The position numbers were made by a program, and so were the translations under genes. DNA of 64,000 nt. Origin: Nitrosopumilus sp. (GTDB taxonomy: Archaea > Thermoproteota > Nitrososphaeria > Nitrososphaerales > Nitrosopumilaceae). Location of the stretch: NCBI GenBank assembly GCA_963667665.2, contig OY763927.2, positions 864,001 to 928,000 of the forward strand. Direction: 5' to 3'. Position 1 is the stretch's first letter; each line of letters starts with the position of its first letter. The notes under the pieces are model-generated. The model was not told where the DNA came from, did not search any database, and was given only the letters and a program-made list of their open reading frames with translations. This document shows, in pieces, positions 2,969 through 59,942 of the stretch.

Positions 2969-2974
2969 GATAGT

Positions 2975-3170
2975 CTATCCTGGTAAGTAATCAGACTCAA
3001 ATATACTTGAGGTACAATCATCACTTGCTGCTGATGTACCAAAATCAAGAGTATTTTCACTGTTACTTACTAATTCTATGTCTTTGCCTGAGGCACTATT
3101 GTCATTTTCACAATAATTATTAAAATCTGCAGCTGATAGATTTATCCAGTTTGTTCCATCATGTATTTTG
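2975..3170 (-). pseudogene. C-terminal remnant of a secreted protein
   Basis: Open frame KIHDGTNWINLSAADFNNYCEND...SDYLPG* with no start codon, directly upstream of 2324-2968. Confidence 0.4.
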
Positions 3171-34837: not shown

Positions 34838-35697
34838 GTGTTCAATTAGGTGGATGGGTGTTAAGTAGGGTGATAAATGATTATGGGAGTGGTTCGTGTC
34901 CTCTTTTGTATCCTGAGAATTTTCTATATTCGTAATCAGTTAAAGGAGTTTGACATCCACATTTACAAAATGTTTTCATGTTTTCAATTTACACTGCACA
35001 TACAAAAAGATTAGGAATTCATCTTTAGCCAGCAACTGTCTTTTCCATTTGACAACCATGCAAATTTATGAAGTTTCAAAATATCATTAATCTCCCTCCA
35101 GATGTGTTTATCAATCCAATCCTTGGGAGTTATTTTGATAGAGTCACCCTTATTAACTATTGATACTTTTTTGATTCTCTTTCCAAGATTGTTTACAAAA
35201 TTTGGTTTGCTTCCAGCTTGTTTTATCAAATCTAGATATTTGTCATCACCAAGATTCAAGTTAATGTTTGCAGCTTGTGCAGGAGTCTTACCATTTAGCC
35301 CTTGATGTGGTTTTACAAAGTTATGGTTAATTTTCAACAATTCTGAAAATGTTTGTGCTGATTCATCATTTCCCAATCCACGTCTAGCTTTGAGTTTTTC
35401 TCTTATCTCATTATGGTATCTCTCAATAGGCCTATTCACAAAGCCATCTTTGAGTGATTTTGTTTTGATATGTGCAGTTTTATTTTCAAACTCTTTTCTA
35501 ATTGCTTCTTGGTAAGAGTTGAGACAATCAGTTAATACATAATTTGGATTCTGTGATACTATCTTTTTGCCACTTGTGATAATCTTTCTTGCATCTGAAA
35601 TTTTCCTTTTCTGTTGATTTGGGATATTTTTTTTGACAAAACTTGAAGACAGAGTCAAATCTAACATTATTTCTGAAATTAGAATCACTACATTTTA
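34827..35697. repeat. 871-bp direct repeat, copy 1 (copy 2 at 41485-42355)
   Basis: Offset 6658 bp; I noticed three substitutions, all synonymous in the transposase frame. Confidence 0.95.
35011..35688 (-). pseudogene. IS6-family transposase C-terminal fragment
   Basis: LTDCLNSY, NRPIERYHN, KPHQGLNGKTPA; first catalytic Asp missing. Confidence 0.8.
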
Positions 35698-36973: not shown

Positions 36974-37708
36974 ATGACTAAACTGACAAGACTGCGTATA
37001 CACGTATGTCCAATAGGATATGAGATAGACCGAATTGTTGAATCTGCAAAAAAATTACAAGCTGATCGTGTATGGCTAATCATAGAACAGAATCCTTCAA
37101 AAGAAACAGCTTCTAAATTCATTAAGCAGGTAAGATCCCTTCTGAAAAAGAATGAAATCGATGTAAAACTAAAAGGCGTATCACGTGATGATCTTTTTGA
37201 CAATCTAAAAGGAATAAAAGAAATTTTCGAAGAAGAAAAAGGAAATGAACTTTATGTCAATGTTTCAGCTGGCTCAAAAATTCAAGCAATTGCAGGGATG
37301 ATGGCATGTATGATGTTTAAAGAGTATGAATCTATTCCATATTATGTTAATCCAAAAAAATATGAAAAGCCTTCGACATCACCACAATCATCAGGTGTAA
37401 AAGATATTGTTCCTCTTCCAGATTATACAATACAAAAACCCAACGCCGAATTAGTACAAACTCTCAAAATAATTAAAAATAATAATGAAAAATTAAATAA
37501 AAAGTCTTTAGGAAAAATTGCAATTCGTGAGGGATTAATAGATTCGAAAAATGATAAAGTAACTCAAAGTGATTATGCAAAACTAGACCATCACATTATC
37601 AAGCCGTTAGAAGAAATATGGAAATATATCACTGTAAAAAGAATTGGAACTAATCATTGGATTGAATTGACAGATGCAGGAAAAGATGCATGTAAATTTT
37701 TAATCTGA
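36974..37708 (+). CDS. DUF6293/HFX_2341-type CARF-like + wHTH regulator
   Basis: IHVCPIGYEIDRI, ADRVWLI, YVNVSAGSK, PYYV; C-terminal wHTH (IELTDAG). Confidence 0.8.
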   Translation: MTKLTRLRIHVCPIGYEIDRIVESAKKLQADRVWLIIEQNPSKETASKFIKQVRSLLKKNEIDVKLKGVSRDDLFDNLKGIKEIFEEEKGNELYVNVSAGSKIQAIAGMMACMMFKEYESIPYYVNPKKYEKPSTSPQSSGVKDIVPLPDYTIQKPNAELVQTLKIIKNNNEKLNKKSLGKIAIREGLIDSKNDKVTQSDYAKLDHHIIKPLEEIWKYITVKRIGTNHWIELTDAGKDACKFLI

Positions 37709-41484: not shown

Positions 41485-42355
41485 TTTTCAATTGAGTGTT
41501 CAATTAGGTGGATGGGTGTTAAGTAGGGTGATAAATGATTATGGGAGTGGTTCGTGTCCTCTTTTGTATCCTGAGAATTTTCTATATTCGTAATCAGTTA
41601 AAGGAGTTTGACATCCACATTTACAAAATGTTTTCATGTTTTCAATTTACACTGCACATACAAAAAGATTAGGAATTCATCTTTAGCCAGCAACTGTCTT
41701 TTCCATTTGACAACCATGCAAATTTATGAAGTTTCAAAATATCATTAATCTCCCTCCAGATGTGTTTATCAATCCAATCCTTGGGAGTTATTTTGATAGA
41801 GTCACCCTTATTAACTATTGATACTTTTTTGATTCTCTTTCCAAGATTGTTTACAAAATTTGGTTTGCTTCCAGCTTGTTTTATCAAATCTAGATATTTG
41901 TCATCACCAAGATTCAAGTTAATGTTTGCAGCTTGTGCAGGAGTCTTACCATTTAGCCCTTGATGTGGTTTTACAAAGTTATGGTTGATTTTCAACAACT
42001 CTGAAAATGTCTGTGCTGATTCATCATTTCCCAATCCACGTCTAGCTTTGAGTTTTTCTCTTATCTCATTATGGTATCTCTCAATAGGCCTATTCACAAA
42101 GCCATCTTTGAGTGATTTTGTTTTGATATGTGCAGTTTTATTTTCAAACTCTTTTCTAATTGCTTCTTGGTAAGAGTTGAGACAATCAGTTAATACATAA
42201 TTTGGATTCTGTGATACTATCTTTTTGCCACTTGTGATAATCTTTCTTGCATCTGAAATTTTCCTTTTCTGTTGATTTGGGATATTTTTTTTGACAAAAC
42301 TTGAAGACAGAGTCAAATCTAACATTATTTCTGAAATTAGAATCACTACATTTTA
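41485..42355. repeat. 871-bp direct repeat, copy 2, containing IS6 fragment 41669-42346
   Basis: Identical translated ORF to 35011-35688. Confidence 0.95.
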
Positions 42356-44044: not shown

Positions 44045-47000
44045 CTAAACAACAAATATCTTAACTCCTATTTTTTCTTCTTCTGTAAGTGATTCATAAA
44101 CGTCTTGGATTTTTGGACTAATTGACCATACATGACACTCTTTGAATCCTAACTGTTTCCATTTTACCATATTTAGTTTGACATGACTTTTATGAGAATC
44201 GGACTCTGCGTTTGACTCTATTTCAACAGATATTGGAATTTCTTTTTCATAATCATAAGCTACAAAATCTGTTCGTAATTTGCCTTTCTTTACTTTTTGT
44301 GTAGCTACTGTGACAAAGTTTCCTTTTGAAACATAATGATCTGTTACCTTTTGAACCATCATTGGAATGTCTTTGGCACTTCCTACAGTCTCAGAAGAAT
44401 AATCAAATAATTGAGATTTTGTCTTATCTGTCAATGAATATACTCCCTTATGGCCTTCAGTTTTAGAAAGCATTTTTTTGTTTACCATGTTCTGCAGAAT
44501 GTCCTTAGACATGGTATCTCGATGAATTGTACCGCCTTTGAAGCTATCAACAATCTTTTGAAGTCCAAGTGGTGAATCTTTGAGAATACAACAAACCAAC
44601 CATTCATCTTCTGTTGGAGGCTCAAATGAGATATTCTTGAGCCATACATTGCTTTGAGAGGAATATTGCTTCATCAAAGAGTCGCCAACTACACCATGAC
44701 CGTATTTCTCCTTTTGAGATTCTATGAATTCATCTAGGAATTCCTTTGGCTGAGTATCTTTTTTAGGAAAAACTGGCCAAAACTGGATAGGTATTGGTTG
44801 GGTTTCCCCTGGAGCTGCAATTAATCTTACAGTCCAGGGATAGTATTCTTGTGTAGCTAGCTGCGATTCAATCTCTTTGGTATATGTTGGATCCCAAATT
44901 TGGCCAAATCTTTTACCATCTCTGCCAGAAACCTTTCCTACAAATTGAGTTCCTACATTTCCTGTAATAATTTCAAACAATTTATCATTAAGCTGAGTCG
45001 ATGTTTGATGTGCCAGTAACAATGATAGTTTGTATGATCTAGCTTGTGTCAACATTGATTCTATTATTGGCAGATTTGCAATATCTTGAAATTCATCTAA
45101 TGCCAAAACAACCTGTGTTCTGTCTTCTTCAATTTTGATTCTATCTGCTCTTTCTTGTATTACAAACCACAGCTTGATCACCAATGTTTGTTTAGCTAAA
45201 GTTATGATATGCTGAGGAATGTTTAGTGGTGATAATCTAATTATTGTGACATGTCCTGGTGAAATCAATTCATCAAAATTAATGGTTGATTCTCTGACAC
45301 AGAAAAGATGTCTCAGAATTGGGTCTGTTGCAAATTTCTCAACTCTATTCAATACTGGCTCATAAGCTTCTTTGGACATTCCTGCAATGGATTCAACTGC
45401 TTGTTGTAAAACAGCATCAGGCTTTCCTAATTCCTTGAACATTTTTGATAACATTTCTGTTCCATCTTCCTGGATAGAGATTATAATCTCATACAAATCA
45501 AGAAATGTTGGTTTGTCATTATTCAGATATAGATATTGTAGTAGTGTGTCTAGAATTCTTTTTAGTCTGACAAAAGAATCAGAGCCATTATACCAATATT
45601 CTATCATTGTCATAATATAACCAACATATTGTGAAACTACAGCTTCTCTGTTTTCTGGAAGATATGATGGAAGCTCCAAAATATTCATAGAGAATTTTGT
45701 TTGGATTGGATCCAAAAAGTGAACATTACCTTTTGCTAATGTTTCATTTTCGCATTGTCTTAGAAAATCATATGAATCAGATCCCTTTGGGTCAATTAGG
45801 ATGAAGGCATTTGGGAAATTTCCAGAAATATTTGAGAGCTCCAAATGTTTTGCAATTGCTCTGATTAGAGTGGTTTTTCCTGATTTGGTACCACCAACTG
45901 CATACATGTGAGTTGGAATATCCTCAGTGGATAGAACTATGCTCTTAGTTTCTGCTGAATGAATGAAATTACCATAGAAATTAGGTTCATCATAATTTAA
46001 CGTGGAATTTCTTGAATAATATCCAAGACAATAACCAATTTTGTTCATCTGTTGTTGTGGCATTGATTGTTTTCGGGTGATGGTTAGATGCTTTGTGGTG
46101 CTGTTAGGTAAATGAATGAACAATCCCAATTCACTTGGAATTAATAACAAAAATGGTGGCGATTTTCTTGTCTTATATTTTCCACTCCAAGATTTTGAAC
46201 AATAATCATTTACTATTTTTGGGAATTGATGTATAGGATCAGGAAGTAGTCTGTCTGGAAATATGTCTATCTTTTGTTTTTTTGTTTTCTCTGAATTTAT
46301 CTTGATGTATTGTGGATTTTTTTCTGAATAAAAATTATCATATTTGTAGATATTTTTGGTAACATGCTCAAAATTTGAGCGGATATTTTCAACTGGTAAG
46401 GATTCTATTTCTGAGAAATCTAAATCCAAATCAACATTTGATTCTACCAATCCTCTAACAGACAACAACACATGTGAGTCCTGAGTCTTCATAGTGCTGT
46501 GTTTTTCTAATACTTTGAAATTTGTTGCAAAGTCGTGAAACTTTTCTGGATGTTCTCGTCCTTCAGTTTTACTTGTGAATAGCATATCTGATGTACTGTA
46601 ATAGTCATTAGCTGTTACTGTCTTGTAATGGTTTTTGATATTAGTTGAATGAGATTGTAGTTCTTTCACAAAAGAATGGTTTTTGAATACTAGCTGAATC
46701 CATGCGTATTTTGAAAGCTGGATGGTATTTGCAATTTGTGTGATTAACAGATGTGCTTTTGCCTGATCAAAGACTGTTGTATAATGACCGTGCTTGTATC
46801 CTACATCAAATATTTGGTAATCCTTGTTTTTATCAAACCAGTCAGGAACCAAATAATCAATATCTTCAAAATCAATATTTTGATACATGTTGTAAAATGA
46901 CTGTTTTAGCTTGTCAAGATCGTGGGTTGATGCCACCAAAACTATGTGAAGTTGTTGTTTTTCTGAATCCCACCATAACTCCATTGAGCGAATTCCTGCA

Positions 47001-47161
47001 GAAATTATTCCCCCTACGTTGTTTATTGCGTTTTTTACGTCCATAGTTGTTGGAATTGAAATAAAACACGCCTTGAGTTCAGTATTTGTTCCTACAAATC
47101 TTTCTGTTTGGTCTAATAATCCTGGAATATTTTTAGAGTTTGAAAGCTTCCAATTAGCCAT
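44045..47161 (-). CDS. VirB4/VirD4(TraD)-HerA-type ATPase with C-terminal wHTH and PD-(D/E)XK-like domain
   Basis: HMYAVGGTKSGKT, LIDPKG, LDEFQ, QARSY..LLLAHQ; C-terminal RTDFVAY..VEIE. Confidence 0.85.
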   Translation of the reverse strand: MANWKLSNSKNIPGLLDQTERFVGTNTELKACFISIPTTMDVKNAINNVGGIISAGIRSMELWWDSEKQQLHIVLVASTHDLDKLKQSFYNMYQNIDFEDIDYLVPDWFDKNKDYQIFDVGYKHGHYTTVFDQAKAHLLITQIANTIQLSKYAWIQLVFKNHSFVKELQSHSTNIKNHYKTVTANDYYSTSDMLFTSKTEGREHPEKFHDFATNFKVLEKHSTMKTQDSHVLLSVRGLVESNVDLDLDFSEIESLPVENIRSNFEHVTKNIYKYDNFYSEKNPQYIKINSEKTKKQKIDIFPDRLLPDPIHQFPKIVNDYCSKSWSGKYKTRKSPPFLLLIPSELGLFIHLPNSTTKHLTITRKQSMPQQQMNKIGYCLGYYSRNSTLNYDEPNFYGNFIHSAETKSIVLSTEDIPTHMYAVGGTKSGKTTLIRAIAKHLELSNISGNFPNAFILIDPKGSDSYDFLRQCENETLAKGNVHFLDPIQTKFSMNILELPSYLPENREAVVSQYVGYIMTMIEYWYNGSDSFVRLKRILDTLLQYLYLNNDKPTFLDLYEIIISIQEDGTEMLSKMFKELGKPDAVLQQAVESIAGMSKEAYEPVLNRVEKFATDPILRHLFCVRESTINFDELISPGHVTIIRLSPLNIPQHIITLAKQTLVIKLWFVIQERADRIKIEEDRTQVVLALDEFQDIANLPIIESMLTQARSYKLSLLLAHQTSTQLNDKLFEIITGNVGTQFVGKVSGRDGKRFGQIWDPTYTKEIESQLATQEYYPWTVRLIAAPGETQPIPIQFWPVFPKKDTQPKEFLDEFIESQKEKYGHGVVGDSLMKQYSSQSNVWLKNISFEPPTEDEWLVCCILKDSPLGLQKIVDSFKGGTIHRDTMSKDILQNMVNKKMLSKTEGHKGVYSLTDKTKSQLFDYSSETVGSAKDIPMMVQKVTDHYVSKGNFVTVATQKVKKGKLRTDFVAYDYEKEIPISVEIESNAESDSHKSHVKLNMVKWKQLGFKECHVWSISPKIQDVYESLTEEEKIGVKIFVV

Positions 47162-48211: not shown

Positions 48212-48766
48212 GTGCAGGGATTAGATGTTTTTGATACTTTAGGCTTAACCTTAGCGTCTAATGATAATAAAATTGTAGGACGCACAACCATTCAAAAACT
48301 AATTTATTTTGAAACTATTAAAATTCCAGAAATTAAATTAAATCAGCCTTATTTTGCCTATTTTTATGGTCCATTTAACAAAAATGTGGCAAAATCTCTT
48401 GAACAAATGGTAATTCTTGATATTTTCGAAGAACATAGAACATATGACAACCATGGAAGTTATGTCTATAAAGTATCAGCCAAGGGTAATCCTCTGATCA
48501 ATAAACTTGTAAAGAAATCTGGAAAAATATTTGATAAAATTGAAAATATTGTTCATACATGTAATGAATACTGTAAATTAGATCCTAACCCACTATCTTT
48601 TGCAGCCAAAGTTCATTTCATGATGAGTTCTCCAAAATCTAAAAAAACCATGACGAATAACGAATTAATGAAGTTAGGAAAATCATTAGGCTGGAAATTA
48701 TCCAGATCTGATATAAAGGGTGGATCTGAATTGTTAAATCAGCTTAACCTTGTTAAAATCCAGTGA
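48212..48766 (+). CDS. YwgA/Panacea(DUF4065)-like protein
   Basis: GRTTIQKLIYF...YGPFNKNV. Confidence 0.7.
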   Translation: MQGLDVFDTLGLTLASNDNKIVGRTTIQKLIYFETIKIPEIKLNQPYFAYFYGPFNKNVAKSLEQMVILDIFEEHRTYDNHGSYVYKVSAKGNPLINKLVKKSGKIFDKIENIVHTCNEYCKLDPNPLSFAAKVHFMMSSPKSKKTMTNNELMKLGKSLGWKLSRSDIKGGSELLNQLNLVKIQ

Positions 48767-50066
48767 TAAACAATATTTCTCTTACAAATCTATTAGAGAT
48801 CCATTATATGGCTTCATTAATTTATCCAAAAAAGAAACAGAAATTATTGACACGTATGCATTTAGAAGATTACAAAACATCAAACAGCTCTCACATGCAT
48901 ATGTAGTATATCCATCAGCAGTACATACTAGATTTGAACATTCGTTAGGTGCTTTACATGTTGCCGATAGAATGTGTCAACAGTTAGGACTAGAAAGAAA
49001 AAAAAGAGAACTTGTCAGACTATCCATTCTTTTACATGATATTGGTCATGGTCCATTTTCTCATTTATTTGAACAGGTTTTAAAAAAAATCAATAAGGAA
49101 CAATTTGAACATGAAGATATTTCTACCTGGATTATTAACGAAAATTCTGAAATATCTTCAATTGTCAAAAATTATAAAAAATCAATAATTGAAATTCTTA
49201 AAAAAGACGACAGAGTTCCAAAATGGGAGTCTTCTGGCAACTCTCTTTTATCAGATATTGTTTCTAGTGGTCTTGATGCAGATAAACTAGATTACTTGAG
49301 ACGAGATTCTTATCATATTGGTGTTGCTTATGGACAATTTGATTTAGAAAGAGTTATTCAAACAATTAGATCAAATCAAAATAAAACTCGTCTCTGCATT
49401 GATGGTAAGGGTAAAGATTCTGTAGAAAATTACCGATTGGGTAGATATCTAATGCATGCCCAAGTATACGAACACCATACCAGAATTGTAGCAGATTCAA
49501 TGTTTTTGAAAGCCTTAGATTTAGCAATTACAAAGGAAAAAATTCTTGATAAAAAATTACTTACTATATCAAAAAATTCTTCTCATAAACGGTTTCTAAA
49601 ATACTATTTAGAATTAGATGATAGAAACATCTATGATACTATTCTTAAAAAACCACGTTCCGAAGCTGCAAAACTTCTAACTGCCATAAAACAACGTAAA
49701 TTATTGAAAAGAGCTTGTGATTATCCTATAACCTCTATGGTTAATGCAGATGTAGCCGAAAAAATTATAAAAATGAATACAAACGAATTAGAAAAAGAGA
49801 TAGCCAAAAAAACAAAAATTAACATCAATCAAATCATTGTATATTTCTCAGAAATTAACATAAAGTTATACGACAAACGTGACATACTAGTTCTTTGGAG
49901 AGGACAGCTAAAAGATTTCAATGATCTTTCCCCAATTTCAGCTCAATCATCAGTTCAAAGACTTTTGGTTTTTGGACCTAGAGATGATAACAAACGGAAA
50001 AAAATCACACAAGAAGTAGCAAACTATCTTAATATTCCAATGAAAGAAATTCGTCCAATGAGTTAG
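48750..50066 (+). CDS. HD-superfamily dNTP triphosphohydrolase (SAMHD1/YwfO-like)
   Basis: RDPLYG, RRLQNIKQL, HTRFEHSLG, LHDIGHGPFSH, DADKLDYLRRD, VYEH. Confidence 0.9.
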   Translation: MLKSSDKQYFSYKSIRDPLYGFINLSKKETEIIDTYAFRRLQNIKQLSHAYVVYPSAVHTRFEHSLGALHVADRMCQQLGLERKKRELVRLSILLHDIGHGPFSHLFEQVLKKINKEQFEHEDISTWIINENSEISSIVKNYKKSIIEILKKDDRVPKWESSGNSLLSDIVSSGLDADKLDYLRRDSYHIGVAYGQFDLERVIQTIRSNQNKTRLCIDGKGKDSVENYRLGRYLMHAQVYEHHTRIVADSMFLKALDLAITKEKILDKKLLTISKNSSHKRFLKYYLELDDRNIYDTILKKPRSEAAKLLTAIKQRKLLKRACDYPITSMVNADVAEKIIKMNTNELEKEIAKKTKININQIIVYFSEINIKLYDKRDILVLWRGQLKDFNDLSPISAQSSVQRLLVFGPRDDNKRKKITQEVANYLNIPMKEIRPMS

Positions 50067-50102
50067 AAAACACAAAAATAATTATGAATTTAACTAAAAA
50101 TT

Positions 50103-50510
50103 ATGAATTTTAAATCTGAAATTAACCGAGACGAATTAATTCAAAAAGCTAGGGAAGCAAAAGAATTTGCTTATTGTCCTCACTCCGACTTTAAGGTTGG
50201 TGCTGCACTACTCTTAGAAAATGGAAAAATCATACTAGGTTGTAATGTGGAGAATATTTCTTATGGTGCAACAAACTGTGCTGAAAGAACAGCAATCTTC
50301 AAAGCAATATCTAATGGAGAACAATCATTTCAAGCAATAGCTATCTCGTCTTCTAGTTCTCCTGATAAACCAATTTACCCATGCGGAATTTGTAGACAAG
50401 TCATGGCTGAATTTAATCCTGAAATGATTGTCTATGTTGACGGAGATGAAACTTCTTACAAATTATCAGAGTTATTACCAAAATCATTTGACGAAAATCA
50501 AATGAAATAG
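50103..50510 (+). CDS. cdd: Cytidine deaminase (homotetrameric type)
   Basis: VGAAL, GCNVEN, CAERTA, PCGICRQ. Confidence 0.9.
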   Translation: MNFKSEINRDELIQKAREAKEFAYCPHSDFKVGAALLLENGKIILGCNVENISYGATNCAERTAIFKAISNGEQSFQAIAISSSSSPDKPIYPCGICRQVMAEFNPEMIVYVDGDETSYKLSELLPKSFDENQMK

Positions 50511-51374: not shown

Positions 51375-51610
51375 TTCATCTCCTCCAATGTTTTATCAGA
51401 GAATTTCATTTGATTTTTTGAGAGAGTTTCTTTCCTGTCATCTTTGACTTCCTCTTCATTAATTTCCTTGAATTCTAGTAACAATTTCATTCGAAATTGC
51501 TTCTCTAGCATTTGCATGCATGGAACTGTAAATTCTTGCATTTGCATGCATAGAGGACAAAAATAATAATCCTCAGTATCTATAGTCATTTCTTGTTTTA
51601 CCTTATTCAT
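51371..51610 (-). CDS. Hypothetical protein with CxxC
   Basis: CPLC; coupled to the Cas4-like gene. Confidence 0.5.
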   Translation of the reverse strand: MNKVKQEMTIDTEDYYFCPLCMQMQEFTVPCMQMLEKQFRMKLLLEFKEINEEEVKDDRKETLSKNQMKFSDKTLEEMK

Positions 51611-52367
51611 TTTCTTTTTCCTCCTTTGATTTTGGGATAGACAATGGTTTATCAGTTAATCCATTTCCATCCTCAAAGCATCTTGTCTGGTATTTACAAA
51701 ACTTGCAGAGTCCAGATGTTTCTCCATTTGGAATTTTGTCATGTGTCTTACCATCTTCAATTTCCTGAATTCTAGTCTTTATCCAGTCTGTTAGATCTCT
51801 TTTTTCTACTTTGTATGTTACAATATCAGACATGTCTGCATAGACAATGTTTAGATTCTCTACTGGTACGTATTCTGAAAACATTGTATCATAGCATTGT
51901 AGTTGCAAGATATGTTCGAGTTTTGGCAAGAATCCTTGCTTTATTTGCCATCTAACAAACTTTGTAGTTTTTAGATCAATGATTGTCTTTGTTTTCCAAT
52001 CATACATGTCTAGTCTTCCTGCTAGTGTTGCTACTTTTCCATTCTTTAATGGAACATGATACTCAATATCCATCTCACGCCATTTGTAAGCATATGTCAT
52101 GTTGTGAAGAAAATCACCACGAACAGTAGCCCACATTGATTCAAGTGTTGTATCTGCTAGAAGTTCTTCTTGAGATATTCCTAGTTGTTTGTATAGAGAT
52201 TTTCTTTGACATCCAACTAGTTCAGTCACAGAATATCTAGACTTCCAGTTTTTGGTAAATACACCGTTTCGTTTTTGTAAAAAATTAATGATTCCTTCTG
52301 GTGCATCTATTTCTTTTGCTAAAGCGATTTGGCCGCTACCCATTTGTTTTGAAATCTTTTGTTTCAT
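51603..52367 (-). CDS. Solo Cas4-like PD-(D/E)XK exonuclease
   Basis: C..RK, RG..LH, GRLD, IDLK, QLQCY, CKFCKY..RC (four Fe-S Cys). Confidence 0.85.
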   Translation of the reverse strand: MKQKISKQMGSGQIALAKEIDAPEGIINFLQKRNGVFTKNWKSRYSVTELVGCQRKSLYKQLGISQEELLADTTLESMWATVRGDFLHNMTYAYKWREMDIEYHVPLKNGKVATLAGRLDMYDWKTKTIIDLKTTKFVRWQIKQGFLPKLEHILQLQCYDTMFSEYVPVENLNIVYADMSDIVTYKVEKRDLTDWIKTRIQEIEDGKTHDKIPNGETSGLCKFCKYQTRCFEDGNGLTDKPLSIPKSKEEKENE

Positions 52368-52400: not shown

Positions 52401-52432
52401 AATTTGGATTATACAAATAATATTTGTACTAA
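52401..52432. promoter_or_regulatory. 32-bp operator/BRE box, copy 1
   Basis: AATTTGGATTATACAAATAATATTTGTACTAA; 29/32 match to copy 2; 33 nt from the Cas4-like ATG. Confidence 0.8.
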
Positions 52433-52447
52433 ATAGTATTTTTACAC

Positions 52448-53194
52448 CTAGATCGTTCCAATTCTAACTTGAGTATCAATCCACACTTGTAAAATCTCAA
52501 TAAACTCATAAACTGAAAAAATTACTAAATTCGCCAAAGTGATATAATTTCCTGGATGATCAATTCCCGATATTGGTTCTGAGATCTTTCTTTTTGCAAG
52601 ATCAAACTTAGCACTGAAAAAAGGTTCTTCTTTATGTGTTTGAAAATTTCTCATGTTATTTAGAACGTCTATAACTCCTCCATAATATTCATATAATTCA
52701 TTTTTTGCTTTTCTCCAATCCATACTTTGTTTATTGTCTTTTCTGCTTCTTGTTGTATATGGATTATTTTGTACATTTTGATAACGAATTTTAATATTTT
52801 CCCGATTAAATTTTTCTAAGAGATTATGCAAAGAATCATCTGGTTCCAATGCATGTTCACAAGAATTTTTCAAATAACCTTTGAATAATTTTAAAAACAT
52901 ATCTTTTAGTGCATGAGGAATATTTCTCAATAATTCATTTTCAATCCGCTGTAATTCATCGAAATCTTTAGGTATTGGAAAGTCTGTAGGAAAAATACTT
53001 GGAATAATACCTTGAGATAAATCATCATATGCCTTTTTAATATTTTCACTCACGTCTGGTGTAATTTCTTCAGTTGTTTTCATTAACTCAATAATTTTAT
53101 CATTTAATGATTCCCAGATCAAAGTTTGTGTGTCTTTTACTCTAACTCTTAAAATCAGATAACGATCAAAATTTGAAATTTCTTTGTTTGTCAA
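52448..53194 (-). CDS. HEPN-like protein
   Basis: Helical; NMRNFQTH (RxxxxH); start abuts the stop of the RM gene. Confidence 0.65.
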   Translation of the reverse strand: MTNKEISNFDRYLILRVRVKDTQTLIWESLNDKIIELMKTTEEITPDVSENIKKAYDDLSQGIIPSIFPTDFPIPKDFDELQRIENELLRNIPHALKDMFLKLFKGYLKNSCEHALEPDDSLHNLLEKFNRENIKIRYQNVQNNPYTTRSRKDNKQSMDWRKAKNELYEYYGGVIDVLNNMRNFQTHKEEPFFSAKFDLAKRKISEPISGIDHPGNYITLANLVIFSVYEFIEILQVWIDTQVRIGTI

Positions 53195-55384
53195 TTATTC
53201 CTCATAATCAAATTTGAAAAGATTTTGTTTTTCAGCTTTTAGTTGTTTTTCAAGTTTTTCTATGTTGTTTAATTTATTATCTAATGCTACTAACTTTTTC
53301 TTTTGTTGATTAAGTGGAGTTTTAGGAATGATCAAAGAATTGAGATTGTCCATATTTATTCTAGAAATAAAATTTGCTTTGCTTTTTATTTTTAATTGTT
53401 CCTGCACACTTTCTGAATTGAGCACATATGCTAGAAATTTAGGAATGATTTTTTTTGGATCTGCTCTAATTACAGCTATTTGTGGACTGGGTAAAATTCC
53501 TACGTCTTTTTTACGTGTAATTCCTATTTTTCCAACTGTTCCCTGGCATGATAATAAAATATCATTTTCTTTGATTAAAAAATCAGAGTACTGTTTAGGA
53601 TATTGTATATAGATAGTTTTTGAAACCACATCCTTTATGAAACCATTTTCTATGTCTTGTATTCTAAGATATGGAGTGGGTGTCTTCTTACTATCTAGTT
53701 CAGAATCAACTGGAGATGGTTTCCCAAACCAAATTTTTCCTAATTTTTCTAATTCAATACCGTTTAGATTTTCGATAATCTTTTGTAATTCTGGTGTTTT
53801 GTCTGATACTGTCCATGTTTTAATCAAATCATTTTGATGTACATGAAAACTTTCAGAAGATGCTTTGAATGATTTTCCTTGTTCAAATTTTTGGAAATCA
53901 TTTTTAATTTTTCTTAAAACATTTGTCCTTAATTTTTTATCTTGAAATACATCTGTAGAAATATCCGACAAGAATACTCTGTTCCAATTTTCCTTACCTT
54001 CTTTTCTTTTGAAATTTAGAATTATCAAACTCATAGATATTCCTGTTTGAGGTAAAGCAATTCCTTGAGGAAATTGAATTATGGCTCTTAGATATCCTGG
54101 ATGTGCTAAAGAAAGACGAAGTGATTCTAAATTTTTCATTGCAAGAAAACTTGGAGGTACTAATAATGCAACTTTGGATAGGTTTTTTTGATTTTGTAAT
54201 TTTTTGATAATATATGCTAATTGTGTTCTTCCATAATTCCCATAAATTTTTCTTATTTCATCTCTTGATGAAATATCTGCACCAATTGGAGGAAAACAAA
54301 AAATGTACTCAAAATCGTTCATTTCCTTAGAATTTAAAAACAAATAATCTTTATTGACTAATTTTATTTCTTTTTCGTATAATTTAGAAATGACTTCTAA
54401 AATTTCACATACATCAGTATTTACTTCAACGCCTGCCAGATTTTTGGTTACATAATCATTTAATTGACTTTTAGTAAGTTTGTATTTTTTTTCAAATATC
54501 TCTGGTAAATCAAAAAGTGGACCATATCTTGCATATGGAATAAGTATTTTTTTATTTTTTAATGGATCAATTAAATCAAATATGAGATTGGATAGTTCTT
54601 TTGGATAATCAATCCAATCGTCTCTTAACAATAATTTTAACATTATTTTCCTAATTGCTTCTTTGTCTGATTTTAATAACGAATATTCTTTCACTGTATC
54701 AAACAATTCATAAAATTTTATTCTAGATAGTTTTTCTTCTGTAACTCTATGTGTACCAAACAAATTTGGAAATGTTCTCTTTCCTAATTCAAACAATTCA
54801 TTTATTTTTTCTTCTTTTGATTTGTTTGTGTCTTCTTCGAATAATTTTCCTTTGAATTCTGTTTCATCTAAAATTTTTAATGTAACAATTTGTAAAAATG
54901 GAGTATATTGATAAAAATCTCTTCTAACTATATCTGCAAGTATTTTTATTTGATAATTAGTTGCAGCAAGGGGTTTGAATTCATTTAATATTTTTTGAAT
55001 TTTATCAAAAAATTCCTTTTTTGGAATATCTTTGATTGGTAAAAGACTATTTCCCTTTAACTGAAATGTCTTTTTTTCTTTTCCATTATATAATATTCCA
55101 TATTCTGCTTTTGATTCTTTTAGATATTCTGAAAGTTGATGTTCAAAAAGTGGTAAAACCAAATTTCCTGTTTTTACTTCTACAATAATTCTTGGTTTTT
55201 TCTTTTCATCAAATACAACGACATTTGCTCTTTTTCCAGAATCTTCTCCAAGAAAGACTTCTCTTCCAATCTGTTTTGGAGGGAATCCATAGTCCTTCTT
55301 CAAAATCTTGATAATTTTTTCAACAAGTTCCACCTCCTTGATCATATCATATTCTTCATTATCGTTGTTTTTATTCATGTTCAT
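53195..55384 (-). CDS. HsdR_N nuclease-like + N6-MTase-like + TRD fusion (type I/IIG-like) with degenerate catalytic motifs
   Basis: RANVVV..VEVK; motif I IPYARYG; motif IV FPPIG; TRD ENDILLSCQGTVGK..IPKFLAYVLNS..PLNQQ. Confidence 0.8.
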   Translation of the reverse strand: MNMNKNNDNEEYDMIKEVELVEKIIKILKKDYGFPPKQIGREVFLGEDSGKRANVVVFDEKKKPRIIVEVKTGNLVLPLFEHQLSEYLKESKAEYGILYNGKEKKTFQLKGNSLLPIKDIPKKEFFDKIQKILNEFKPLAATNYQIKILADIVRRDFYQYTPFLQIVTLKILDETEFKGKLFEEDTNKSKEEKINELFELGKRTFPNLFGTHRVTEEKLSRIKFYELFDTVKEYSLLKSDKEAIRKIMLKLLLRDDWIDYPKELSNLIFDLIDPLKNKKILIPYARYGPLFDLPEIFEKKYKLTKSQLNDYVTKNLAGVEVNTDVCEILEVISKLYEKEIKLVNKDYLFLNSKEMNDFEYIFCFPPIGADISSRDEIRKIYGNYGRTQLAYIIKKLQNQKNLSKVALLVPPSFLAMKNLESLRLSLAHPGYLRAIIQFPQGIALPQTGISMSLIILNFKRKEGKENWNRVFLSDISTDVFQDKKLRTNVLRKIKNDFQKFEQGKSFKASSESFHVHQNDLIKTWTVSDKTPELQKIIENLNGIELEKLGKIWFGKPSPVDSELDSKKTPTPYLRIQDIENGFIKDVVSKTIYIQYPKQYSDFLIKENDILLSCQGTVGKIGITRKKDVGILPSPQIAVIRADPKKIIPKFLAYVLNSESVQEQLKIKSKANFISRINMDNLNSLIIPKTPLNQQKKKLVALDNKLNNIEKLEKQLKAEKQNLFKFDYEE

Positions 55385-55417: not shown

Positions 55418-55449
55418 AATTTGGATAATACAAATATTTTTTGTACTAA
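55418..55449. promoter_or_regulatory. 32-bp operator/BRE box, copy 2
   Basis: AATTTGGATAATACAAATATTTTTTGTACTAA; overlaps the regulator ATG; 33 nt from the RM-gene ATG. Confidence 0.85.
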
Positions 55450-56348
55450 TGGCAATATTCATAGCACCGATAGGAACTCACACTGAACATGTAAAGGGAT
55501 GGCTCAAAGAAGAATCTAGAGATGTAGATACTCTATGGCTGATTCATAGTAAAAAAAACATAAAGTTTGATTTTCCAAAGATTGCAAAAAAATTAGAAAA
55601 AGATCTAAATGCAGCATATCCACAAATCACAATAAAGAAAAAAATAATTGAAAGTGCATTTTCTGAAGACCCCACAATTGATGCTATACTTGAAATTATT
55701 CGCAAAGAGGAAGATGATGATTCCTCTATTATTCGAAAAGACTTTGTTGTAAATATCACAGGTGGTACTAACATTATTGCAGCAGCCACAATTCTTGCAG
55801 CAACATTTTATGGAACAAGAGCTCATTATGTTAAAGAACCACAAAAAGGTGATCCAAGGGGAACAAAATATGTTTACGAATTACCAATTCAACCAATAGG
55901 AATTGCTAGATTAAATCAAAATCAGTTAGATGTTTTAAAAATTATTGCAGACTCTACTTATGAAATAAATGATGTACCTAAAGGACTAGATAATAAAAAA
56001 ACACCTGGTTCTATTACACGATTTAAGTTACTCCAAAAACTTGGATGGGCAAAACCAGTAAAAGGATCAAAATTTCCAAGAAGAGAAGGAGGAACCAGAT
56101 TACTTGGAATCACAAAGAAATTAAGAGATGCTGGTTTAGTTGAACAAATAGATTTTATTGAATTTTATAAGGATCAAAATGAATCTAAAAAATCAAAAAT
56201 AGTATATCAGGATGGTTATGCAAAAAAAGTTGAAAATAAAAAATATGTTTCTGACTGGAAAATTTTAAGAAATGAAAGAGAAGTAAGATATGAGATAACT
56301 GCTGCAGGCAAACGTAAAGCAAGAGATGCCCTTATGTTTGATATTTAG
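55449..56348 (+). CDS. CARF-like (DUF6293/Csa3-type) + wHTH regulator
   Basis: IFIAPIG, LWLIHS, VNITGGT, AHYV; wHTH KLRDAGLVE..YEITAAG. Confidence 0.8.
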   Translation: MAIFIAPIGTHTEHVKGWLKEESRDVDTLWLIHSKKNIKFDFPKIAKKLEKDLNAAYPQITIKKKIIESAFSEDPTIDAILEIIRKEEDDDSSIIRKDFVVNITGGTNIIAAATILAATFYGTRAHYVKEPQKGDPRGTKYVYELPIQPIGIARLNQNQLDVLKIIADSTYEINDVPKGLDNKKTPGSITRFKLLQKLGWAKPVKGSKFPRREGGTRLLGITKKLRDAGLVEQIDFIEFYKDQNESKKSKIVYQDGYAKKVENKKYVSDWKILRNEREVRYEITAAGKRKARDALMFDI

Positions 56349-56376
56349 TACAAAAAATATTTGTATTATCCAAATT
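56345..56376. promoter_or_regulatory. 32-bp operator/BRE box, copy 3 (perfect inverse of copy 2)
   Basis: TTAGTACAAAAAATATTTGTATTATCCAAATT overlapping the regulator stop; 33 nt before ATG 56410. Confidence 0.85.
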
Positions 56377-56726
56377 CAAAGATAACTTGTAGTTTCTCTA
56401 ACTATTTTCATGACACAAAAATGCCCTCAAAAGAAACGATGCGTGCAAGAGATATTTTGAGATGGTTTGTGGTGTTTGTTATTGGCTACTAAAAGAATGC
56501 AAATCCCAAAAAATTGCAATTCCTGGGGGCTACAAATTATCTAAATTAATTCAAAATGAAGGATTTGTGATAAAATACCCAAAACCAACCGATCTGTTAC
56601 ACGGAAAAGATCCCACCGGTGATGTTACACTATGACAATTTTTCATTTAACCGTTTTGAACTGGATCCACTTTTGGGAATAGATCGCAGAGAATCAGGTG
56701 TGAAATTGAGGCTAGTTTATGGTCTT

Positions 56727-58412
56727 TTATTCATAAATTCTTCTGATTTTGGAACCACAATTAGGGCATTGCTCTTTTGTATGAATAATTGAGCAGTCAG
56801 CACAGCAAAACTCGATTGGGGTAGATGCTGAGACGTTTTGTGGTTTCTGTTTTATCTCTGTGAGTTCCTTTTTAATGTCTGCAAATTCTTCTTGTTGCTG
56901 TTTTAGGATTATTTCATGTCTTGCAAGGGCTGATTTTTGTGATTTTTCTTCGGATTCTTTTTGTTTTAGTGTTGCAAGTGCATCATTTAGTTCTGCCTTC
57001 AGAACATCAGAATCATCAGTGCCATTAACTATTGATGTGAATTTTGTAAATATGTTAAGTCTTTTTGATGCCTTGGAGTATTCTTTTCGCAGATTTTCAG
57101 GAAATAATTTTGCTTGTTTTTTGTAAGAGTTTTTTGGTTTATGTCCTACTGATTCTTCAATTACATCTTCTCTACACCCACAATCAGTTAACACAGATAC
57201 CAATACGTCACGAATTTCATGTGAATCCATGTTGTAGATATTTTTGCCATTAGCTGTTTTGCCTATTATTTTTAATATTCCTGCTCTTTGTGCAATTTTA
57301 TGGAAGGAGTGGCTCACCCATGAATCTGTAACGGGGTTTCCAAATTTATTTAGAAATATTGGATCTCCCATTTGGATATTCTGTTTTGTTTGTTTTTTTC
57401 TAAAATCCAAATATCTTTGTAACTCATAAACTGCATCTCTGTCTAGAAATCCAATATGCTTGTAATCTACTTTAATTCTTACAAGAGTAATTGGTACAGG
57501 GCACTTGTCTAAATCCCATGAATTGTGATTCTCCGAGCCAAAATATTTCACTAATTGTTCCCATGCCTCAAAATTGAATCTGTCCACCAAGGTTGTTCTA
57601 TCCAATCCTCTTTGAAATTTACACAAAAATAATGCTTTTTCCATCATTGATGGCTTTCCAACAGTTAAAAATTTCATCAAATCAGATAATGACATGCTTT
57701 GTTCTTCGATCTCGTTATTATGAGTAATTGTAGGATCATACTGAAAATTAATCTCCTGTTCATTTCTTTCAAAATATGATATTATTGCAGATTTGATTAG
57801 TGTTAACGAATTTGCTTTAAAATTGATATGTTTCTCATCAAGAAGATATTGCTTTATGATTCGTATGATTGTTTTTTGTTCTATAAATGGTCCTTCTAAT
57901 ATGTCAAGAATTTCTTCTACGTTTTGAAATTTTTTATATTCTGTTTTTTGTACAAATGTGTTTTTATTGGTTCTATGGAGTAATGATATTTTGAATCTTC
58001 TTTCATTGTTTTCAATGTCGGGGGATGTAAGCCATTTGTTAAAATTCCACAATTGACGCAAATATGCTTTTTTGGTACTATCTTCTGCAGTTTTTGCGTT
58101 CTTTTGCCTGTTTCCTCTTAATTGTGATTGCCAATATTGTATTGATTTTAGATCTGTAAACCAGGCAGGGATGTAATTCTCATCAACTCTTTCAATCATT
58201 TTATGATCTTTTGCAAATTTTATCATCTTTTGACTTTTAATGAGGGCATTTTTCTTTTCGTTCTTGCATATTTTTAGAAGAAATTTTTTATTATTTTCAA
58301 ATAATGAGTTTACTGAAACGGTCTCACCTGTTTGTGGAAAGTGAATTTCTTCAAATAATTGCGGAAATTCTAGATTATTTTTGACAACTTTGTACAGGTA
58401 TGACTGTTTCAC
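56727..58412 (-). CDS. Tyrosine recombinase with C-terminal coiled coil and Zn ribbon
   Basis: FQRGLD, RIK, SHEIRD, VGHK..SY; CADC..CPNC. Confidence 0.85.
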   Translation of the reverse strand: MKQSYLYKVVKNNLEFPQLFEEIHFPQTGETVSVNSLFENNKKFLLKICKNEKKNALIKSQKMIKFAKDHKMIERVDENYIPAWFTDLKSIQYWQSQLRGNRQKNAKTAEDSTKKAYLRQLWNFNKWLTSPDIENNERRFKISLLHRTNKNTFVQKTEYKKFQNVEEILDILEGPFIEQKTIIRIIKQYLLDEKHINFKANSLTLIKSAIISYFERNEQEINFQYDPTITHNNEIEEQSMSLSDLMKFLTVGKPSMMEKALFLCKFQRGLDRTTLVDRFNFEAWEQLVKYFGSENHNSWDLDKCPVPITLVRIKVDYKHIGFLDRDAVYELQRYLDFRKKQTKQNIQMGDPIFLNKFGNPVTDSWVSHSFHKIAQRAGILKIIGKTANGKNIYNMDSHEIRDVLVSVLTDCGCREDVIEESVGHKPKNSYKKQAKLFPENLRKEYSKASKRLNIFTKFTSIVNGTDDSDVLKAELNDALATLKQKESEEKSQKSALARHEIILKQQQEEFADIKKELTEIKQKPQNVSASTPIEFCCADCSIIHTKEQCPNCGSKIRRIYE

Positions 58413-58487: not shown

Positions 58488-59942
58488 TTGAATTCTAGTT
58501 TGAGTAAAGAAGACAAAGGGATCACAGTTTCAAAAAAAGAAGATTTTAGTGAATGGTACACACAGATAGTTCTTAAAGCCAAACTTGCAGATTATGCACC
58601 AGTTAAAGGACTAATTGTTCTTAGACCTGATGGATATTCTATTTGGGAATCATTAAGAAACACATTTGATAAAAAATTTGCAAATAATGGAATCAGAAAT
58701 GGGTTTCTGCCTATTTTAATTCCAGAGTCATTGTTAAGTAAAGAGCAAAAACACTTTGCTGGATTTAATCCAGAAGTATTTTGGGTAACTCATTCAGGGA
58801 ATAATGAAATTGGAGACAGGCTTGCATTAAGACCTACATCTGAAACTTTAGCATACACAATGTATGCCAAATGGATTCAAAGTTGGAGAGATTTACCATT
58901 AAAGATTAATTTTTGGAATACAGCACTTAGAGCAGAGATCAAAGGAACAAAACCATTTCTTAGAACATCCGAATTTTTGTGGCAAGAAGGTCATACAGTA
59001 CATGCAACACAAGAAGAAGCGGAAGAAGAAGTGATGAAAATATTAGAGATTTATAAAAAAACTGTTGAAGAAGAGTTGGCAATTCCAGTAACAACAGGAA
59101 GGAAAAGTGAGAAAGAAAAGTTTGTAGGTGCAGTATACACAACCACTATGGAATCCATTATGCCAGATGGGAAGGCATTACAAATGGGCACATCACATTT
59201 TCTAGGACAAAATTTTTCAAAACCATTTGAAGTAAAATTTGCAGACAAAGACAATGTAGAGCATTTTGCATGGCAAACATCATGGGGAGTTTCTTGGAGA
59301 CTAATTGGTGCAATGATAATGATTCATGGTGATGATCAAGGTCTTGTGTTACCACCAAAGATAGCACCAATGCAAGTTGTAATTGTACCAATTTACAAAA
59401 ATGATGAAGGCAAAGATAAGGTATTACCCAAAGTAGAAGAAATTAGAAAAAATCTAGAGTCAAAAGAAATCAGAGTACATGTTGATGATAGAAGTGAATT
59501 ATCTCCAGGATACAAATTCAATGATTGGGAACTAAAAGGAGTTCCTATACGAATAGAGATAGGCCCTAAAGACATAGAAAAGAAGAGCATAGTTCTTGCA
59601 AAAAGATACAATCGTGAAAAGTCAAGTTTAGGTTTTTCTGAAATTGAAAAAATCCCCCCTATCTTAGATGAAATACAAAATGACATGTTAAAAACTGCTA
59701 GAGAACAAACGAAAGCAAATACCATAGATATTTCAGACTATACTGAATTCAAATCAAAAATTGAGAAAGGGGGTTTCTTTAGTGCTCCTTGGTGTGGAAA
59801 ATTAGAATGTGAGGAAAAAATTAAAGAGGAAACAGGTGCAGATATCAGAGTAATTCCATTTGGTAGTGAAAATACAGAGAAAAAATGCATGTATTGCCAA
59901 GAACAAAGTATTTCAATCCCGATTTTTGCGAGAGGATACTAA
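58488..59942 (+). CDS. proS: Proline--tRNA ligase (archaeal/eukaryotic type)
   Basis: DFSEWY, LRPTSE, FLWQEGH, QTSWG, FARGY; start probably at 58500. Confidence 0.97.
   Translation: MNSSLSKEDKGITVSKKEDFSEWYTQIVLKAKLADYAPVKGLIVLRPDGYSIWESLRNTFDKKFANNGIRNGFLPILIPESLLSKEQKHFAGFNPEVFWVTHSGNNEIGDRLALRPTSETLAYTMYAKWIQSWRDLPLKINFWNTALRAEIKGTKPFLRTSEFLWQEGHTVHATQEEAEEEVMKILEIYKKTVEEELAIPVTTGRKSEKEKFVGAVYTTTMESIMPDGKALQMGTSHFLGQNFSKPFEVKFADKDNVEHFAWQTSWGVSWRLIGAMIMIHGDDQGLVLPPKIAPMQVVIVPIYKNDEGKDKVLPKVEEIRKNLESKEIRVHVDDRSELSPGYKFNDWELKGVPIRIEIGPKDIEKKSIVLAKRYNREKSSLGFSEIEKIPPILDEIQNDMLKTAREQTKANTIDISDYTEFKSKIEKGGFFSAPWCGKLECEEKIKEETGADIRVIPFGSENTEKKCMYCQEQSISIPIFARGY

Follow-up and report, generated by a model that had tools for sequence, protein, structure and literature searches.

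What is a restriction-modification (R-M) like protein with altered catalytic signatures retained for, when its gene is joined directly to that of a HEPN-like protein? The question is raised by two adjacent minus-strand genes in the window, the whole 64,000 bp stretch analysed here (positions 864,001 to 928,000 of contig OY763927.2, Nitrosopumilus sp. assembly GCA_963667665.2). The large gene might be decaying, might encode an active enzyme with unusual motifs, or might be kept for something other than catalysis. A first-pass annotation of the locus had proposed a dead R-M scaffold, retained as a sensor of anti-restriction proteins or modified DNA that activates a HEPN ribonuclease (RNase). On the sequence comparisons described below, the large protein is a conserved pseudo-methyltransferase and not a case of simple decay, and the two genes are best read as a conserved module, translated together and carried by a mobile element that is integrated in the genome of this archaeon.

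The large gene is an intact open reading frame (ORF) at 53195-55384 on the minus strand, with its TAA stop at 53195-53197. It encodes a protein of 729 amino acids (P0001) composed of a nuclease, a methyltransferase-like region and a single target recognition domain (TRD), as determined from the ORF, its translation and Pfam. The N-terminal PD-(D/E)xK domain occupies residues 23-121 (55022-55318, minus; HSDR_N_2, PF13588, E 1.5e-12). The N6_Mtase-like core, the pseudo-methyltransferase, lies at 53816-54604 (minus); it was missed by hmmscan of the 729-residue protein and recovered in a six-frame search with PF02384 at 45.7 bits, above the cut-off. PF02384 was matched by hmmscan in four of five family members, and hidden Markov model (HMM) alignments to HsdM (3ufb, 2okc and 7eew) and to BsaXI (8w0p) further support the core. 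A type I-like TRD with a C-terminal helix completes the chain (53234-53755, minus; Methylase_S, PF01420, E 3e-12, residues 544-717), backed by PADLOC Specificity_I models and the HsdS structures 5ybb_D and 3okg, and the family profile matched solved HsdS, HsdM and RM.BsaXI chains. A structural model of the large protein, built from five sequences and of low confidence (predicted local distance difference test [pLDDT] score of 57), was used solely for ranking with Foldseek; it placed the type IIG enzyme BpuSI first (3s1s, E 1.5e-13) and, after it, type I methyltransferases, CamA, BsaXI and DrdV; M.TaqI was also among the hits. Esub1 (8vsq) was rejected as a relative, its match being at the level of the TRD only. 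The intact ORF and the HsdR_N-methyltransferase-TRD order given in the first-pass annotation are both upheld, the latter by Pfam, six-frame PF02384 and sequence matches in the PDB. In its build the protein follows the HaeIV kind of single-chain type IIG/IIB enzyme, combining a nuclease with a gamma-class N6-adenine methyltransferase fold, a single TRD and a helix for dimerisation.

Three catalytic signatures depart from this build. At the position of motif I (54512-54547, minus) the protein reads ILIPYARYGPLF in place of xLDPACGTGGFL, aligned to the DPACGTGGF of 3ufb and 2okc, and at the position of motif IV (54284-54295, minus) it reads FPPI in place of the NPPF of 3ufb, 2okc and 8w0p. In the HMM alignment IPYARYG falls on DPACGTG, and when the methyltransferase region alone is aligned as a profile, 'ilipyarq.g' lies over 'vLDPACGTgG' and 'lPPv' over 'NPPF'. 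The equivalences PACGTG to PYARYG and NPPF to FPPI, first drawn from the sequence alone, are therefore correct, because they are reproduced by HMM alignment to the solved HsdM chains 3ufb and 2okc and to RM.BsaXI. The window protein has neither the S-adenosylmethionine (SAM) binding motif I (D/E-x-x-x-G-x-G) nor the catalytic motif IV (D/N)PP(Y/F/W). In motif I the Asp and two of the three glycines are gone, with Arg and Tyr in the loop; in motif IV both the D/N and the aromatic residue are gone. In the nuclease domain, codon 54 (55223-55225, minus) is AAT, encoding Asn in place of the catalytic Asp; all four nearest homologues have Asp at this position, as do at least 90% of 71 relatives. The ExK element at 55172-55180 is intact (E69 and K71), and the D54, E69 and K71 columns are each at least 90% conserved among the 71 aligned relatives. 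The full D..(D/E)xK signature is thus present in the four nearest homologues and interrupted by Asp to Asn in the window protein, so that the change of RAD to RAN reported previously is real and corresponds to D54N. Contigs of four public sequencing runs were inspected at this codon; N54 was unchanged in all three that cover it (X3, X8 and X13, from three studies, one of the runs possibly being the source sample of the genome), while X12 stops short of codon 54.

Are these substitutions recent damage or an old property of the family? A word-indexed search scored 8000 candidates and recovered seven proteins. Besides the cluster to which the large gene itself belongs, these comprised four full-length homologues (identities of 60, 50, 46 and 34%) and two that match in the TRD only. 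Motifs I and IV are non-canonical in all four full-length homologues, and the nuclease Asp is present in each (RAD, RVD, RAD and ISD). An exhaustive profile search yielded 125 proteins at E ≤1e-30, with the best 150 listed; from those listed, the 90 proteins of 640-800 residues were tabulated for their motifs, shorter fragments and longer fusions being set aside, and all tabulated motifs come from intact ORFs. A FastTree phylogeny of 89 of these rows (P0128 was misaligned and dropped), a quick method that gives Shimodaira-Hasegawa (SH) like support only, placed the window protein in a clade of 36 with a support of 99. Motif I (D-x3-G-x-G) is kept in 0 of 36 proteins within the clade, and the 34 rows that do keep it all lie outside. 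The D/N before the PP of motif IV is retained by 3 of 36 inside (P0021, P0026 and P0031) versus 20 of 53 outside, and the residue at this position in the clade is mostly hydrophobic (e.g. F, M, L, I or V). Outside the clade, rows with both DPACGxGG and (D/N)PP are common, and some rows that keep motif I are missing the D/N. Within the clade, identity to the window protein declines to approximately 24%, with length and domain order kept.

With motif I missing from 36 of 36 clade members and the D/N from 33 of 36, the loss of the methyltransferase signatures is old, and the protein has been kept at full length ever since. Judged by these motifs, a sizeable branch of type IIG-like genes cannot be ordinary R-M enzymes. 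The nuclease presents a different picture: D..ExK is broken in 12 of 36 proteins inside the clade versus 4 of 53 outside, one of the latter being N-terminally truncated. D54N is, on this alignment, a change of the window lineage only, and the recurrent losses suggest that nuclease catalysis is dispensable for at least some clade members. The idea of a retained dead R-M scaffold accordingly survives in part: the methyltransferase substitutions are shared by every close homologue and by the whole clade, whereas 24 of 36 clade members, and likewise the four nearest homologues, have a canonical nuclease, the Asn being lineage-specific. In the TRD, identity to the three closest homologues (P0004-P0006) is 52-61%, similar to the conservation of the other domains.

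The small gene (52448-53194, minus) encodes a HEPN-like protein of 248 amino acids (P0010). Its TTG start at 53192-53194 abuts the TAA of the large gene with no spacer, as had been noted previously, and a GAGGA sequence lies 4 nt upstream of the TTG. An RNFQTH motif (R-x4-H) is encoded at 52634-52651 (minus; residues 182-187), and R182, N183, F184 and H187 (RNFxxH) are invariant in 16 homologues, in agreement with the R-x4-6-H pattern of HEPN proteins. Homologues of the protein fell into 11 clusters by single-sequence search and 17 by profile, at 47-100% identity. The predicted structure is all-helical, with a pLDDT of 70.5. A wide VIA-align search with this model returned at least ten HEPN entries in the top 50 with Z scores of 7.3-9.1, amid helical-bundle noise; the best were 2hsb (Z 9.1, 119 residues aligned), HepS (9oik, Z 8.7), sacsin (3o10, Z 8.5) and 7ae2 (Z 8.4), with 5yep, 8xdj, 1ylm, 1wwp, 4nqf and AbiA (8oz7) among the others. 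A search of named clusters in the ESM Atlas grouped 17 of 30 matches with HEPN_RiboL-PSP clusters, in which the family is present in only 15-83% of members for the clusters shown; this lead towards RiboL-PSP found support neither in HMM search nor in hhalign. The earlier description of an RxxxxH HEPN gene thus holds for the motif, which is present and invariant, while the HEPN identity, matched by no profile, is suggested by the motif, the all-helical prediction and the weak fold matches. The protein is best described as HEPN-like, a small orphan family that may be a member of the HEPN group. Two homologues, P0012 and P0013, carry tandem expansions of an NNPYTTRSRR-like unit in a loop near residue 145. 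A 258-aa ORF elsewhere in the genome, outside the window (G000:C1:614521-614955), gave a sub-threshold HEPN_RiboL-PSP match of 22.9 bits and is unrelated to the small gene.

The association of the two genes was sought in other sequences. In one metagenome contig (L001) a homologue of the large gene at 191-2380 overlaps a homologue of the small gene at 2370-3134. Two further homologue pairs were found on equally sized contigs (5045 and 6108), and a size of 3414 is likewise common to homologues of both genes; the HEPN-like gene is therefore linked to a large-gene homologue outside the window, directly in L001 and through matching contig sizes in two more pairs. Single contigs of runs X8 and X12 also cover both genes. 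Beyond L001, profile searches of genome contigs gave no further locus, a tblastn search of plasmids gave none, and profile searches of viral contigs found no pair and only two matches at the level of the TRD (L019 and L020). The Cas4-like gene that lies downstream in the window was ruled out as a conserved core member, the ORF downstream of the pair in L001 being unrelated to it.

Alleles of the two genes assembled from runs X3, X8 and X12 were compared with the window sequence. In the small gene, X3 showed 6 nucleotide differences in 4 codons, X8 showed 22 in 17 codons and X12 showed 23 in 21 codons; combined, these amount to 30 positions in 25 codons, all of them non-synonymous. The 2190-nt large gene showed 0, 0 and 2 differences in the same three runs, yielding a variant density of 40 per kb in the small gene versus 0.9 per kb in the large. 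At 19% synonymous sites, the probability of observing no synonymous change is approximately 0.002-0.005. The X8 and X12 alleles also carry an in-frame 3-nt insertion after 52708. Many of the changes reverse charge and follow a helical periodicity (e.g. residues 79, 83, 90, 98 and 102), while the RNFQTH motif is unchanged in all alleles compared and the C-terminal helix is likewise free of strain variation. Recombinational import of a diverged allele was discounted, as it would have brought synonymous changes too and none is present among the 25 codons. Mutagenesis of the kind caused by diversity-generating retroelements was also discounted, since by eye the changes are not limited to adenines. 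This pattern indicates that the surface of the HEPN-like protein is under strong diversifying selection of the arms-race type. Positive selection of this kind usually marks a direct interface between host and virus proteins.

The first-pass annotation had missed a palindrome, TACAAA-N5-TTTGTA, that recurs at this locus, and a CARF gene divergent from the pair. The first copy of the palindrome (55429-55445) lies 43 nt upstream of the ATG of the large gene and 3 nt from the ATG of the CARF gene. The second (52412-52428), accompanied by a TATA-like box, lies upstream of the Cas4-like gene, and the third (56349-56365), also with a box, follows directly after the CARF stop and faces a short plus-strand ORF or transcript with an ATG at 56410. 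Across the 1.89-Mb genome (two contigs) there are three perfect matches to the pattern, all at this locus, against one for a reversed-pattern control; allowing up to one mismatch, the window contains five matches against 0.74 expected. The three copies share approximately 35 nt in register, forming a cassette of palindrome and TATA-like box. In L001, at 130-146, the same arms are found at the same distance from the homologous gene, with a different spacer and followed by a similar TATA-like box. Palindrome and box were also found once in 2.9 million viral contigs, at 5001-5028 of contig L021, between the gene of a ClpP-like protease and a 354-aa ORF, which hints that the cassette belongs to a lineage of viruses or mobile elements of this host group. 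The third cassette faces ORFs of 16 and 23 codons (56410-56490, plus), the longer with a hydrophobic tail, and could be the promoter of a small-peptide gene or of a non-coding RNA converging on the integrase-like gene. A sigma-70 promoter and terminator scan found 28 elements against 33 expected, using a bacterial model unsuited to an archaeon.

The divergent gene (55449-56348, plus) encodes a CARF/HFX_2341-like protein (P0175; PADLOC CARF3, E 4.7e-22; PF19810 at 27.5 bits, under the cut-off of 30) and is a candidate regulator. No profile identified a DNA-binding domain in its C-terminal half, which has the look of a winged helix by eye only. A 44-aa divergent ORF in L001 was considered as the N-terminus of a CARF protein and rejected, the likeness by eye being unsupported by BLASTP or Pfam. 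Under the second operator lies the Cas4-like PD-(D/E)xK nuclease gene (51603-52367, minus; PF12705 and PF01930; TIGR00372 at 49.5 bits, under the cut-off). The genome is archaeal by its small-subunit rRNA, which scores 1461 bits with the archaeal model and 1090 bits with the bacterial one. The locus is AT-rich (GC 0.25-0.30) and sits in an island bounded by an integrase-like gene beside proS, with TraG/HerA-like, dGTPase-like HD, deaminase and insertion sequence (IS) genes inside. The bounding gene (56727-58412, minus) encodes 561 amino acids with a weak match to tyrosine recombinases, abuts the prolyl-tRNA synthetase gene (58488-59942, plus) and is likely to form the right border of the island; no tRNA gene was found in the window. 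A 1038-aa TraG/VirD4/HerA-like ATPase with a PADLOC mad8 match (44045-47161, minus) marks the island as conjugative or virus-like. At 48212-50510 (plus) a gene with a weak DarG/macro-like match (48212-48766), a dGTPase-like gene with HD and HD_assoc_2 domains (48750-50066) and a cytidine/dCMP deaminase gene (50103-50510) form what looks like a defence cluster of the nucleotide-depletion type. Between two 225-aa ORFs of IS240-type DDE transposases with identical Pfam scores (35011-35688 and 41669-42346, minus) lie a second HFX_2341/CARF gene with a winged helix (36974-37708) and a PolB-exonuclease-like gene, an arrangement that may be a composite element. Upstream of the island, two very large proteins of surface type that carry DUF285, cadherin-like and PKD repeats are encoded at 28304-33803 (minus).

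The reading favoured here, and favoured tentatively, is that the large protein is a DNA reader incapable of methylation, coupled to a HEPN-like effector that evolves fast, and that the pair is carried by a mobile element of an archaeon. The large protein would most likely no longer methylate, its methyltransferase fold and TRD serving only to read DNA, and with its nuclease Asp replaced the protein of the D54N lineage probably binds DNA without cleaving it. The small partner would be a HEPN-like effector, probably an RNase, whose surface contacts viral proteins that inhibit or trigger it; the strong diversifying selection on that surface fits such direct contact. The pseudo-enzyme would then act as a DNA-reading scaffold that holds or licenses the effector, by analogy with PrrC/EcoprrI and Ronin. 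The operator TACAAA-N5-TTTGTA, specific to this locus, would control expression, with the divergent CARF protein as its probable mediator, and the locus as a whole is probably a previously uncharacterised antiviral module.

Several observations weigh against this reading. The partner matched no family in Pfam, NCBIfam, PADLOC or PHROGs, leaving HEPN membership without confirmation by profile; a six-frame search of its gene with PF18735 at E up to 1 gave no match; and hhalign against four RiboL-PSP proteins, the sole HEPN family compared profile to profile, gave a probability of 0.5%. Its structural model is of low confidence around the motif, Foldseek returned nothing for it at E <0.1 (Csm6 stood at rank 3), and the VIA-align Z scores of 8-9 fall short of the tool's caution mark for helical bundles, with rhodopsin-type noise ranked above them. 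In the large protein, motif II E320 and motif III D346 are kept in the nearest relatives, and SAM binding may survive; three clade members retain D/N-PP; and since the nearest homologues keep the canonical nuclease triad, the family may simply be one of active endonucleases and not of scaffolds. Linkage outside this lineage is thin, being direct in one contig only, and the pair was found in one of 61 related genomes and one of 401 genomes of the phylum, in both cases the window's own, a rarity that limits comparison. The fast-evolving member is the HEPN-like protein and not the scaffold, which is invariant between strains. Directly observed are the architecture, the motif states and their conservation across the clade, the coupling of the genes, the selection pattern and the operator copies; loss of methylation, RNase activity, physical coupling of the two proteins, an antiviral role and the identity of the operator-binding protein are steps that we infer.

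Other explanations account for parts of the same evidence. That the large gene is the decaying, functionless remnant of an R-M system beside an unrelated small gene is very improbable: all three signatures are altered in this copy, and the pair is rare and carried on a mobile element, but full-length intact homologues bear the same substitutions down to the most distant clade members, the large gene is identical in contigs of several studies, and L001 preserves the gene pair together with its promoter element. An ordinary, active type IIG R-M enzyme with odd motifs, whose neighbour is one more HEPN gene in an R-M locus, would explain the type IIG fold and domain order and the conservation of E320, D346 and the PP of motif IV, and PMC3710099 reports linkage to R-M systems for at least 16 clades of HEPN proteins. 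The residues missing from motifs I and IV, the additional loss of the nuclease Asp in this copy and the free variation among hydrophobic residues before the PP, which argues against a catalytic role, make this explanation improbable.

Modification-dependent restriction resembling type IV systems deserves more attention, although it too is considered rather unlikely. Here the pseudo-methyltransferase pocket and the TRD would flip out a modified adenine and recognise it in a fixed sequence context, the nuclease would cut only such DNA, the HEPN-like gene would be an independent second layer, and D54N would disable the DNA arm in this lineage. Retention of the nuclease triad in most of the clade and in all four nearest homologues after loss of the methyltransferase motifs is what such an enzyme would show, as is the replacement of the motif IV D/N mostly by hydrophobic residues. 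A nuclease that has no cognate methylase also needs other means to spare self DNA. The TRD is conserved like the rest of the protein, and the TRDs of true R-M systems usually diversify. Against this, no modified-base reader of the type was found in the literature searched, the clade contains 12 independent-looking losses of the nuclease motif, the window gene included, and the tight translational coupling to the partner is left unexplained. It is also conceivable, if unlikely, that the large protein is the locus's own regulator, a single-TRD homodimer that binds TACAAA-N5-TTTGTA at the three promoters and represses or times the HEPN-like toxin and the Cas4-like operon, as a regulatory pseudo-enzyme in an addiction or exclusion module. 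The sole three perfect copies in the genome lie at this locus, comparison with L001 shows conserved arms and a variable spacer, as would be expected where a protein binds a bipartite site, and the TRDs of the two loci are 53% identical; homodimeric single-TRD enzymes do read such sites, e.g. GAY N5 RTC by HaeIV (PMC3874165). The divergent CARF protein, with a probable DNA-binding C-terminal half and a start 3 nt from the site, is however a more ordinary candidate; six-base arms spaced 11 bp centre to centre also fit a helix-turn-helix dimer; and 729 amino acids with a nuclease triad conserved in relatives would be much machinery for a repressor.

A DNA reader coupled to a HEPN-like effector is thus retained as the favoured reading. 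A more specific form of it can be proposed, with considerable doubt, as a guard or decoy derived from a natural pseudo-enzyme: a type IIG scaffold that has lost methylation, and here cleavage too, would be kept as a sensor of specific DNA sequences or of anti-restriction proteins and would license the fast-evolving HEPN RNase. Its recognition site may be the TACAAA-N5-TTTGTA present at its own three promoters, and the copy in L021 would then imply autoregulation and recognition of invaders by one reading head. The partner constitutes a new HEPN-like family in which positive selection has left a very clear signature, and the three-copy operator offers a ready handle on the regulation of the locus.

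How does the pair compare with known systems? CARF proteins are familiar from two settings. Csm6 and Csx1 combine CARF and HEPN in one chain; here CARF is on a separate, divergent gene and no CARF domain was matched in the HEPN-like protein. Csa3 binds palindromic promoter sites. The CARF/HFX_2341-like gene of the window resembles Csa3-like regulators in lying divergently beside a palindrome that recurs at several promoters, including that of a Cas4-like gene; the setting differs in that no Cas10 was found in the genome and the DNA-binding domain of the CARF protein was matched by no profile. HEPN proteins of abortive infection, such as HepS (9oik) and the RiboL-PSP HEPN (PF18735), share with the partner an R-N-x3-H motif near the C-terminal third, an all-helical build of approximately 250 amino acids and a weak similarity in fold and by language model, but the partner has neither HMM nor profile-profile support and a different genomic neighbour.

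The large protein shares its domain order with, and is similar in size class to, type IIG/IIB enzymes of the HaeIV type, BpuSI (3s1s) and BsaXI (8w0p). HaeIV, the nearest characterised design, is listed in PMC3874165 as 2R~gammaM~[GAY], with one TRD per chain and a homodimer on a symmetric bipartite site. Distant members of the large-protein family carry canonical DPACGxGG and (D/N)PP like the HaeIV-type enzymes. The window protein departs from these in the degenerate motifs I and IV of its 36-member clade, in its nuclease Asn, in a TRD that has not diversified and in its coupled HEPN-like partner. Criteria based on gene content count such genes as lone type IIG modules (e.g. PMC12988326). A full-text literature search found no description of such a clade or of such a partner, although the supplements of the cited papers could list such genes.

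The decoy idea itself is already known, from Ronin (bioRxiv 10.1101/2023.04.06.535777) and from the linkage of HEPN genes to R-M systems (PMC3710099). In PMC3710099 the R-M proteins of loci that contain a HEPN effector gene are proposed to restrain the RNase, by analogy with PrrC. The window pair resembles PrrC/EcoprrI in the presence of a HEPN-type effector gene within a restriction locus. PrrC, however, has an N-terminal ABC-type ATPase and is encoded among active type Ic hsdMSR genes, while the window partner is a stand-alone protein of 248 amino acids with no ATPase domain; and EcoprrI is an active hsdMSR system, while the window R-M-like protein is a single chain lacking the methyltransferase motifs. 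In Ronin, according to the preprint, an HsdMS decoy restrains a death effector and methyltransferase catalysis is dispensable, and the likeness to the window pair lies in an R-M look-alike closely linked to such an effector. Ronin is bacterial and comprises HsdS and HsdM with no HsdR, a 61-aa transmembrane RonA and canonical HsdM motifs, with Ocr, ArdA and Aop1 as triggers; the window pair has a fused chain with a nuclease domain, a natural pseudo-enzyme, a helical HEPN-like partner of 248 amino acids and an archaeal host. The pair is a member of neither system, because the defining parts of both were looked for and did not match. If the favoured reading is true, the pair would be a natural counterpart of the engineered Ronin result, in which no methyltransferase catalysis is needed, and would extend the decoy and guard logic to the archaea, whose defence repertoire is poorly known.

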